A stretch of DNA of 64,000 nucleotides, taken from Acholeplasmatales bacterium (GTDB taxonomy: Bacteria > Bacillota_I > Bacilli_A > Acholeplasmatales > JAEDCM01). Positions within the stretch are counted from its first letter, which is position 1. Each line of letters opens with the position of its first letter. Of this stretch, positions 29,408 through 30,232 are shown one piece after another. The stretch lies in assembly GCA_017961685.1 (NCBI GenBank), contig JAGCWW010000050.1, positions 290-64,289 of the forward strand. The letters run 5' to 3'. The position numbers were made by a program, and so were the translations under genes. The notes below the pieces were generated by a model. It was not told the origin of the DNA. It did not search any database and saw only the letters and a list, made by a program, of their open reading frames with translations.

Positions 29408-29702
29408 ACGCGATAGAGCAAAACAATTTTTACCATTTAATTCCCTAAGAGGTTATTATGATTTAATTAGAGAAAAAGAAAAAGAAGTTACACCTAAAAG
29501 AGAATTATCAAATGATGATTTATTAGAATTATCAAACAAGTTAAAAGAAATAAAAAAGAACAGGATGGTTAAAATAACATATTATGATGTTGATTCATAT
29601 AAAACAATATCGGGATTAGTATCAAAAATTGATTTTACTTATAAGTATATTGTGATTGTTAAAACAAAGATTAGCTTTAACGACATAAGTGTCATCTATT
29701 GA
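29400..29702 (+). CDS. YolD-like protein
   Basis: N-terminal RAKQFLPFNSLRGY motif. It overlaps the polymerase stop and shows the typical pairing with a Y-family polymerase. The start is ATG 29400 or GTG 29391. Confidence 0.6.
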   Translation: MSRRDRAKQFLPFNSLRGYYDLIREKEKEVTPKRELSNDDLLELSNKLKEIKKNRMVKITYYDVDSYKTISGLVSKIDFTYKYIVIVKTKISFNDISVIY

Positions 29703-29719
29703 TTTTGTTGTTATATTGT

Positions 29720-29815
29720 TATATAATTTAAGTGCGAAAGTAATGATAAATAGATTTCAAGAGAAAAAAGGATAGAGTTCGTGGCTCTATCCTTTTCGCA
29801 TTTGGTGAGACAAAG
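29720..29815. repeat. Repeat unit 1: TATAAT, AAGTGCGAAAG box, terminator hairpin, TTTTCGCATTTGGTGAG
   Basis: TATAAT at 29722-29727. Box at 29730-29740. Hairpin GGATAGAG-ttcgtgg-CTCTATCC at 29770-29792. On the minus strand the hairpin is followed by T6. Confidence 0.45.
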
Positions 29816-29864
29816 ACTAGTTTAAAATCATAAGAAACATTTATTGATTTTGCTTTTGTATTAT

Positions 29865-29955
29865 TATATAATATAAGTGCGAAAGCAATGATTAATTGAG
29901 AAAAAAAGAAAAGGATAGGCTGCAACCTATCCTTTTCGCATTTGGTGAGGCAATG
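29865..29955. repeat. Repeat unit 2 (145 nt downstream of unit 1), same architecture
   Basis: TATAAT at 29867-29872. Box at 29875-29885. Hairpin GGATAGG-ctgcaa-CCTATCC at 29913-29932. On the minus strand it is followed by TTTTCTTTTTTT. Confidence 0.45.
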
Positions 29956-29976
29956 ATTAATTAAGTTTAATAAATA

Positions 29977-30045
29977 TTAACGCTTATCTCTAAGCATTAT
30001 AGTTATAGTAACAAGTACTACAACTAGGACTACTAAGTAATCCAT
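29977..30045 (-). CDS. 22-aa hydrophobic peptide MDYLVVLVVVLVTITIMLRDKR (candidate type I toxin-like peptide)
   Basis: ATG 5 nt after GGAGG. A single TM-like segment with a charged C-terminal tail. The unit 2 terminator hairpin lies about 45 nt downstream on the same strand. It is too short to appear in the ORF track. Confidence 0.4.
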   Translation of the reverse strand: MDYLVVLVVVLVTITIMLRDKR

Positions 30046-30047
30046 AT

Positions 30048-30092
30048 TTACCTCCGCATCATGCACATTGCCTCATTTAACAAGTGTTTCAT
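30048..30092 (-). CDS. 14-codon leader ORF MKHLLNEAMCMMRR, whose last codons and stop overlap the SD of the 22-aa ORF
   Basis: GGAGG, 7 nt, then ATG. It ends CGG AGG TAA, where GGAGG is the SD of the downstream peptide ORF. Confidence 0.25.
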   Translation of the reverse strand: MKHLLNEAMCMMRR

Positions 30093-30232
30093 TGCTAAAC
30101 CTCCTGCACCACAATAGTGGCAAATATATTATAACGCAATAAATGGCTTTATTAAGCCTTTTCTTTTTGAAAAATTTATCAAAAAATGAACCTAAATTAG
30201 TATAAATTTTATCATATTTTATCAAAAAATAA

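Follow-up and report, generated by a model that had tools for sequence, protein, structure and literature searches.

The stretch of DNA analyzed here (64,000 nucleotides (nt) of an Acholeplasmatales bacterium; assembly GCA_017961685.1, contig JAGCWW010000050.1, positions 290 to 64,289 of the forward strand) is called the window below, and positions are counted from its first letter. It carries two tandem repeat units that are best explained as two paralogous antisense small RNA (sRNA) genes of ca. 70 nt, the RNA partner of a cassette resembling a type I toxin-antitoxin system. This reading was given a probability of about 75%. It was built on the repeat itself, on its promoters and hairpins, on sRNA/mRNA complementarity and the co-variation of the paired segments, and on paralogues, relatives and synteny. 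The comparative evidence is strong that the plus strand is transcribed and that the RNA would act by pairing with the 3' untranslated region (3' UTR) of the toxin mRNA, because the recognition arm of the sRNA co-varies with a box in the 3' UTR, the -10 box is fixed in position and the hairpin changes in a compensatory manner.

The tandem repeat and its predicted RNAs

A 145-bp segment was found in tandem by pairwise alignment, with unit 1 at 29676-29820 and unit 2 at 29821-29965. The initial annotation had noticed the 145-nt spacing; the units are real, and they are longer than was first stated. A repeat search returned two pairs, 29676-29767/29821-29912 (92 nt, 78% identity, spacing 145) and 29787-29833/29927-29973 (47 nt, 81%, spacing 140). 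TTTAA forms the first bases of both units and occurs again at 29966, as is expected for a duplication by slippage or unequal exchange. Unit 1 opens with the last 27 nt of a YolD-like open reading frame (ORF); then come, on the plus strand, the promoter, sRNA-1 with its terminator, and lastly a copy of the 3'-UTR box that has decayed. Unit 2 opens with a copy of the same ORF end, followed by its promoter, sRNA-2, a terminator and an intact 3'-UTR box; the duplicated segment was thus a whole small gene with its flanks. Two boxes had been described as common to both units, and each occurred exactly twice: AAGTGCGAAAGYAATGAT (up to three mismatches) against 0.22 expected, and CTATCCTTTTCGCATTTGGTGAG against 0.00 expected. 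No long ORF lies between the end of the YolD-like ORF (29702) and the start of a COG0523 GTPase gene (30298). At the syntenic metagenome loci L116 and L121, which have the YolD-like ORF upstream, a single unit is present and aligns with unit 2. The duplication is therefore derived in the lineage of the window. (Handles of the form G001, C61 and L115 are our own, for genomes, contigs and loci.)

The promoter and hairpin previously assigned to each unit were recovered. Both units have a TTGATT-17 nt-TATAAT promoter (score 10/12), located at 29699-29727 in unit 1 (-10 hexamer at 29722-29727) and at 29844-29872 in unit 2. The predicted sRNA-1 (29733-29806, plus strand, ca. 74 nt) consists of the arm GUAAUGAUAAAUAGAUUU, a hairpin at 29766-29796 and the tail UUUUCGCAUUU, and it matched a hidden Markov model (HMM) of the sRNA with E=5.7e-14. 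The predicted sRNA-2 (29878-29946, plus strand, ca. 69 nt) is the candidate cognate antitoxin. Its hairpin (29908-29937) is a bidirectional terminator common to sRNA-2 on the plus strand and the toxin mRNA on the minus strand; it was scored as a minus-strand terminator with the tail TTTTTTTCTC, in agreement with the proposal of the initial annotation that it ends the peptide mRNA. Three terminator-like sites were found in the region, against 0.2 expected. The predicted RNAs of units 1 and 2 fold at -23.6 and -22.5 kcal/mol, respectively (z = -4.4 each, compared to shuffled sequences). A conserved box, TTTCGCATTTGGTG, can be read in two ways: on the plus strand it is the U-tract of the sRNA, and in the minus-strand reading it is the part of the 3' UTR that folds back onto the leader of the toxin mRNA. 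Across 37 loci of two families, a -10 box was present in every case with at most one mismatch (34 perfect TATAAT), at a median of 36 nt upstream of the hairpin, and the -35 hexamer was mostly of the TTGA type.

Two observations concern the upstream border. The -35 hexamer of sRNA-1 (29699-29704) contains the TGA stop codon of the YolD-like ORF. The cassette also abuts the Y-family polymerase/YolD operon, after which the hairpin of unit 1 is the sole terminator-like structure.

The cassette family and predicted pairing with the toxin mRNA

The genome is an 82%-complete metagenome-assembled genome (MAG) of 2.04 Mb (28.9% G+C, 84 contigs). It holds eight cassettes, i.e. that of the window and seven further copies of ca. 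330 bp. Ten sRNA genes were detected with an HMM of the sRNA only: the eight beside toxin genes, unit 1 of the window and a spare unit at C61:28718-28791. Read along the sRNA strand, the cassette consists of the -10 box, a variable 5' arm, an A-rich linker, the hairpin with its U-rich tail, a copy of the arm and, on the opposite strand, the end of the toxin ORF. The paralogous toxin ORFs have 22-24 codons and encode hydrophobic peptides (MDYLV[VI]LV...) with a basic tail; across cassettes, the peptide has 20-31 residues. Presence in relatives had been named as a check at the outset, and the cassette was found there. Two other genomes of the genus carry it, and of 301 genomes sampled from the order, 34 gave full-length matches to a covariance model of the leader and toxin start (two families, 8 of 43 genera). 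These matches keep the plan of leader ORF, peptide ((M/V)EYLVIL..., 21-31 residues), hairpin, repeated box and sRNA promoter. In a pattern scan of named genomes, the hits were rumen and gut MAGs labelled Acholeplasmatales, Anaeroplasmataceae or Tenericutes, or mislabelled Firmicutes.

The recognition arm of sRNA-2 (GCAATGATTAATT, 29885-29897, plus strand; direct repeat DR1) is copied in the toxin 3' UTR (DR2, 29950-29962), which is the target of sRNA-2 when read on the minus strand. Because DR1 and DR2 are direct repeats in the DNA that are read from opposite strands, the sRNA and the mRNA are complementary there. Sixteen base pairs are predicted, at -20.6 kcal/mol compared to -10 to -18 kcal/mol for non-cognate mRNAs (all duplex energies are thermodynamic predictions). 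When the eight paralogues were compared in an 8 x 10 matrix, each arm had its own toxin mRNA as the best partner, and the site of pairing was always the 3'-UTR box (-20.6 to -26.6 kcal/mol, versus -7 to -19 kcal/mol for non-cognate pairs). Over the 37 loci, the cognate duplexes averaged -23.7 kcal/mol and the non-cognate ones -11.7 +/- 3.7 kcal/mol; the cognate was the single best partner in 30 loci, and the exceptions were groups of near-identical paralogues. The arms differ completely between loci, as in C12 (GCAATGATTAATT) and C63a (GCAATGAATATATGTAAAA), though the toxins there are identical. Several differences between DR1 and DR2 are transitions that keep G-U pairs (CGTTCGTTG in the 3' UTR, CGTCCATTG beyond the hairpin). 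The general marks of a type I system are both present, namely a gene for a hydrophobic peptide (22 residues in the window, a putative membrane toxin) and an antisense RNA whose complementarity co-varies with its target in 37 loci.

The toxin ORF of the window (MDYLVVLVVVLVTITIMLRDKR) occupies 29977-30045 on the minus strand. It is preceded by a leader ORF (MKHLLNEAMCMMRR, 30048-30092, minus strand), whose last codons form the Shine-Dalgarno sequence of the toxin and whose stop codon lies 2 nt before the toxin AUG. The predicted promoter of the toxin mRNA (TTAATA-16-TATAAT) is at 30128-30155 on the minus strand. In the cassettes of the genome, the leader ORF has 10-14 codons and its own GGAGG; its stop codon precedes the toxin AUG by 1-18 nt and falls on the toxin Shine-Dalgarno sequence or next to it. 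The leader ORF is kept in 12/12 genus loci and in most of the second-family loci that were parsed. Upstream of the leader, a 5' hairpin was found in five of the eight paralogues, together with a TATAAT promoter. When the eight paralogues were folded jointly in RNAalifold, the toxin AUG was placed at the foot of a 7-bp hairpin (family form GGAUUAC/GUAAUCC, loop YUA). In the window, this hairpin (30026-30045, minus strand; GGAUUAC-UUA-GUAGUCC) covers the first seven codons and includes the G of the AUG; in G001:C222 it has changed in a compensatory manner to GGAAUAC-AUC-GUAUUCC. This constraint on the RNA probably explains the invariant MDYLVIL N-terminus. A second helix in the coding region, with many double changes, was also found in the eight mRNAs.

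In the same joint folding, the mid-portion of the leader ORF was paired with the 3'-UTR segment that immediately precedes the terminator. In the window, the leader box UGAGGCAAUG (30066-30075, minus strand) is complementary to CAUUGCCUCA (29946-29955), which would form a long-range lock; the 3'-UTR segment pairs more weakly with GCA...GGU around the leader Shine-Dalgarno sequence. Closure of the 5' and 3' ends was present in the minimum-free-energy folds of 8/8 paralogues. The sRNA site, AAUUAAUCAUUGC, overlaps the leader site by six bases (CAUUGC in the window), and in 12/12 genus loci the arm of the sRNA and the leader have a word of 6 nt or more in common. Words of at least 7 nt were shared in 49% of the 37 loci, as opposed to 11% for shuffled arms. 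The shared words are of the GCAATG type in 12/12 genus loci, with CGATGAA in C47 and CGATGGACG in part of the second family. When the sRNA site was masked in silico, the predicted accessibility of the toxin AUG rose in six of the eight paralogues, clearly so in five (e.g. from 0.04 to 0.49 and from 0.06 to 0.66). Because masking tends to expose the toxin AUG, direct occlusion as in the par system is unlikely, and a translational-block model was rejected. Pairing of the sRNA with the toxin or leader start was also rejected; a weak, unconserved match of the 3' tail to AUGCGGAGG was seen by eye in two loci.

Gene content points to a protective role of the sRNA. A matched sRNA was found in 37/37 loci with a terminator hairpin, and no intact toxin without a matched sRNA was seen, except at L034. 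This second-family locus (G099:C31) has an intact toxin ORF and a terminator hairpin split by an insertion of ca. 35 nt; among the toxin loci seen, it alone lacks a clean sRNA terminator. Orphan sRNA genes with no toxin were found at L010 (syntenic with C51), L011 (syntenic with C47) and L122. The metagenome loci L117 and L120 have their upstream flank and sRNA gene in common. L120 ends inside the cassette, with the toxin and leader ORFs present; in L117, the toxin has been deleted down to its last ca. 8 codons, and the sRNA gene is retained together with its repeat. Because the toxin is repeatedly lost while the sRNA stays, the sRNA appears to protect against the peptide. The genome encodes RNase III (242 bits, above the family cut-off).

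Two further elements lie near the toxin promoter. A motif, TTTTTTGAAAAATT[CT]A...TTTTTGAAC, was found ca. 45-75 nt upstream of the toxin -10 hexamer (30160-30200 in the window). In its strict form it matched three cassettes (C51, C63 and C84) and nowhere else in the genome; looser versions are present in the window, at C61b and in each of the other two genomes of the genus. The motif could mark a site for a regulator or the border of the cassette. Just upstream of the toxin promoter, at 30145-30158, lies a small hairpin that is bidirectional (GGCTTTATTAAGCC), and it recurs as GGCTTTGTTAAGCC at many metagenome cassettes (L116, L117, L118, L123, L125 and L127). This hairpin resembles an insulating terminator that moves along with the cassette.

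Unit 1 and the rival explanations

Judged from its sequence, unit 1 looks like an sRNA gene that is still expressible and whose cognate recognition is lost. Its -35 and -10 hexamers are identical to those of unit 2 at 12/12 positions, compared to 53/83 (64%) of the remaining columns (p=0.007). With the two shared boxes included, 37/38 positions are identical (p=2e-5), although these boxes were chosen post hoc, and the block-wise identity test is partly post hoc for that reason. The 5' box and a 23-nt 3' block are identical at 25/26 positions, and the top of the stem has changed in a compensatory manner (A-U to G-C). The recognition elements have fared differently. On its own 3' UTR, the arm of unit 2 reached -21.1 kcal/mol and was the single best of 37; the arm of unit 1 (GUAAUGAUAAAUAGAUUU) reached -10.1 kcal/mol on the neighbouring 3' UTR (rank 25/37), which is background. 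The loop of unit 1 (UUCGUGG) is not complementary to the loop of the toxin terminator, and its copy of the 3'-UTR box has decayed to GACAAAGACTAG. Because the arm and the loop have diverged, unit 1 is not a working duplicate of unit 2. The "one spare copy" of the initial annotation was thus correct as to an extra copy of the sRNA gene, not as to its being a functional substitute.

Spare upstream units recur at C61b, G001:C109, G001:C222 and the metagenome locus L115. Their residual match to the neighbouring toxin 3' UTR is graded (-23.1, -15.6 and -11.2 kcal/mol, with -10.1 kcal/mol for unit 1 of the window). One of them, G1C109A, fits the toxin 3' UTR of G2_C58, from another species, at -31.5 kcal/mol, which is better than its fit to its own neighbour. 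The orphan L010 (in G002) resembles the upstream unit A of L115 and lies at the same site. A hairpin upstream of C61a was considered as a further spare unit; it proved to be the terminator of the upstream gene and to have no promoter. In the metagenome locus L119, two cassettes stand head to tail, the first toxin having lost its 5' half, such that an sRNA gene, a toxin remnant and a second sRNA gene follow one another. Apart from local duplication, tandem sRNA genes can arise in this way as well. The spare copies fit a course of duplication, drift of one copy and loss of the toxin with its cognate sRNA, by which an orphan is left; they fit equally well with copies that keep older specificities.

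Four other explanations were weighed. The one that was taken most seriously, while still being held to be less probable than its negation, is that unit 1 is a functional second regulator. It might keep an older specificity, be an intermediate in a specificity switch, act on another target, or serve as an insulating promoter-terminator that keeps transcription of the upstream polymerase/YolD operon from reading through into sRNA-2 and the toxin 3' end. The identity of its promoter and terminator base to those of unit 2, in a background of 64%, would follow from such a function, but gene conversion, with unit 2 or C63a as the partner (the 23-mer is common to them), could also have produced it. 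Spare upstream units are present in 4/12 genus loci and in L115, all with intact -10 boxes, and the graded residual matches, the better fit of G1C109A to the 3' UTR of another species and the survival of upstream-type units as orphans (L010, which is like unit A of L115) also speak for retained or altered specificity. The search for another target ended otherwise: none was above background among the 37 toxin 3' UTRs (best -15.6 kcal/mol), and the best genome-wide match of the unit 1 arm in blastn-short (18/19, at C69) lies in the same sense inside an hsdR-like gene and was taken as chance.

The remaining explanations concern the sRNA itself. It is improbable that the sRNA is an activator that frees the 3'-UTR lock from the leader and thereby opens the mRNA for translation of the leader ORF and the toxin. 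The overlap of its site with the leader-binding box and the higher AUG accessibility on masking (6/8 paralogues) are what such a role predicts; however, the loss of toxins with retention of the sRNA, and the lack of intact toxins without a matched sRNA (except at L034), are at odds with it. The match of arm and 3' UTR is also strictly kept through rapid sequence turnover, as expected if loss of pairing were lethal, and the sRNA promoters are of consensus strength. Very improbable is the notion that there is no separate sRNA, only bidirectional terminators, promoter-like sequence arising by chance in AT-rich DNA and repeats that are relics of duplication. TATAAT-like hexamers are indeed common at 29% G+C (six promoter-like sites in the region, 4.7 expected), but in 37/37 loci of the two families the -10 box keeps its position and is mostly accompanied by a -35 of the TTGA type, and the co-variation of arm and 3'-UTR box has no explanation unless the plus strand is transcribed. 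Hardly credible at all is a cis-acting structured RNA, i.e. a riboswitch or attenuator with alternative helices. The initial annotation had proposed mutually exclusive structures formed by a 5' box (GUGCGAAAG) and a 3' segment (UUUUCGCAU), with a novel structured RNA as an alternative. The 5' box can pair with the 3' tail, but in the predicted folds the resulting helix encloses the hairpin, such that the two are nested and mutually stacked. This helix is limited to a subgroup and is missing from the consensus of 18 sRNAs, in which the terminator hairpin (compensatory changes in 7/12 pairs) is the only conserved structure. The alternative-helix reading was rejected on these grounds, and a novel structured RNA is not supported. 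No plus-strand gene lies downstream. The Rfam scan that had been recommended as a check gave nothing that explains the units: at gathering thresholds the only match was an unrelated tRNA elsewhere, at E<=10 there were sub-threshold chance matches (snoRNA, miRNA and SpF25), and the antitoxin RNA families gave no match at either setting.

Several points weigh against the interpretation of the units as antisense sRNA genes of a toxin-antitoxin-like cassette. The plus-strand U-tract (UUUUCGCAUUU) is interrupted and was not called a terminator by the scan. A Pfam search with five toxin paralogues returned no significant family (the best was a sub-threshold match to Hol_Tox, E=0.025). One subgroup of the second family shows no leader mimicry. 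Masking of the sRNA site tends to open the toxin start rather than to close it, and this lends no support to a simple translational block. Gene conversion could mimic selection on the promoter and boxes of unit 1. Finally, we infer transcription, toxicity and the effect of sRNA binding, the ends of the transcripts are predicted, and decay of the mRNA is argued by analogy.

Proposed mechanism and relation to known systems

In the proposed mechanism, sRNA-2 would be transcribed towards the toxin gene and would end at the hairpin that also terminates the opposing toxin mRNA. Its single-stranded 5' arm is complementary to the toxin mRNA outside of the overlap, and the two terminator loops are complementary to each other, which would give recognition at two sites as in RNA I/RNA II of par. 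In the free toxin mRNA, the 3'-UTR box would pair with the region of the leader ORF and close the molecule. The toxin start codon would be held in the conserved hairpin; the leader ORF in front of it has its end on the ribosome-binding site of the toxin. The closed full-length mRNA would be translationally inert. The 3' UTR may then be captured by sRNA-2 through its longer match (a locus-specific toehold and the loops), with displacement of the leader. The resulting duplex would mark the mRNA for RNase III-type decay, such that toxin would be made only when the sRNA is depleted. Unit 1 would have arisen by the 145-bp tandem duplication of the whole sRNA gene, with its promoter and terminator kept and the match of its arm and loop lost. 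It is probably still transcribed and probably not a working antitoxin for the neighbouring toxin; it would be either redundant and about to end as an orphan, or a copy whose specificity has changed.

A more elaborate scheme was entertained only tentatively and is considered doubtful. The cassette might be a three-partner RNA switch, in which the 3'-UTR box locks the mRNA through its own leader, and the sRNA, as a leader mimic with a locus-specific toehold, vies with the leader for the lock and so determines what becomes of the mRNA. The spare and orphan sRNAs, unit 1 included, might then be snapshots of the re-assignment of specificity among paralogous cassettes, in which a unit is duplicated, one copy drifts while its sister evolves together with the 3' UTR, and the old copy ends as an orphan.

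In its layout, the cassette is like par (Enterococcus faecalis pAD1, Fst RNA I/RNA II) and SprA1/SprA1as (Staphylococcus aureus), with convergent promoters and a shared bidirectional intrinsic terminator. The likeness extends to a second complementarity outside of the overlap, which results from DNA direct repeats read oppositely; the repeats are poorly conserved between paralogues, providing specificity (PMC7472228, PMC8594479). Recognition by a separate 5' arm that repeats the 3'-UTR box follows the logic of par/Fst-RNA II (PMC7472228). The target differs: it is the toxin 3' UTR beside the terminator, at least 15 nt downstream of the stop codon, whereas in par it is the Shine-Dalgarno sequence and start codon, and no comparable match to this 5' region of the toxin mRNA was found here. 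Unlike in par and SprA1, the 3'-UTR box also pairs with the leader of its own mRNA, and a leader ORF precedes the toxin. Compared to Fst, the toxin (20-31 residues) has a charged tail but no PXXXG(C) or Pro/Gly motif and no match to the Fst Pfam family.

The initial annotation had proposed convergent antisense antitoxin RNAs in the style of txpA/RatA or bsrG/SR4 (Bacillus subtilis). An antisense sRNA that faces a hydrophobic-peptide gene and shares its terminator was borne out, and the 3' end of the toxin mRNA would be where the antisense RNA acts, as in those systems. In txpA/RatA and bsrG/SR4 the duplex is degraded in a manner that depends on RNase III; such decay is the likely outcome here by analogy, and an RNase III gene is present. 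The style itself did not hold. In the known pairs the overlap is ca. 75-120 nt and extends into the ORF, whereas here it is ca. 45 nt (about 29900-29946) and does not reach the ORF, sRNA-2 ending at about 29946 and the toxin stop being at 29977. Recognition is by a non-contiguous 5' arm, and there is no similarity in sequence or in Rfam.

With hok/mok/sok and AapA1/IsoA1 (Helicobacter), the cassette has in common a leader ORF placed for probable translational coupling and a predicted 5'-3' fold-back that would lock the full-length mRNA. The antisense RNAs of those systems bind the 5' leader of an mRNA that has been processed at its 3' end, whereas the sRNA of the cassette would bind the 3' UTR of the full-length mRNA, in competition with the fold-back. 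The sRNA has no complementarity to the leader start, as a block of the leader in the manner of Hok/Mok/Sok would entail, and resembles the leader instead. For the tandem arrangement, the precedent is dinQ/agrA-agrB (Escherichia coli), in which two paralogous sRNA genes with their own promoters and terminators lie in tandem next to a single toxin gene; agrB, matched at 30/31 nt, gives the phenotype, and agrA is matched at 25/31 (PMC3567139). The window has such a pair with unequal match (-21.1 versus -10.1 kcal/mol), and the loss of match is greater in unit 1 than in agrA. The agrA and agrB genes, however, are divergent and pair with the 5' part of dinQ, whereas the sRNA genes of the window converge on the toxin gene and are directed at its 3' UTR.

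The type I systems that are listed in reviews come from Proteobacteria, Firmicutes and Tenericutes only (PMC12390103). In the literature searched, there was no description of this cassette or of a type I family with both an sRNA overlapping the 3' end and a leader ORF. The cassette is apparently an undescribed toxin-antitoxin family of uncultured gut and rumen Acholeplasmatales. It is abundant, with eight copies in a 2-Mb genome and occurrence in 34/301 genomes of the order. The tandem spare copy is a modest finding, given the precedent of agrA/agrB; a three-partner switch, if true, would be without a described counterpart among type I systems. The 37 loci, in which arm and 3'-UTR target change together, and the loci in which toxins were deleted and sRNA genes persist, amount to a natural experiment. 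Through these cassettes, the evolution of specificity in RNA antitoxins and the effect of a 3'-UTR-directed antitoxin on its mRNA become testable.

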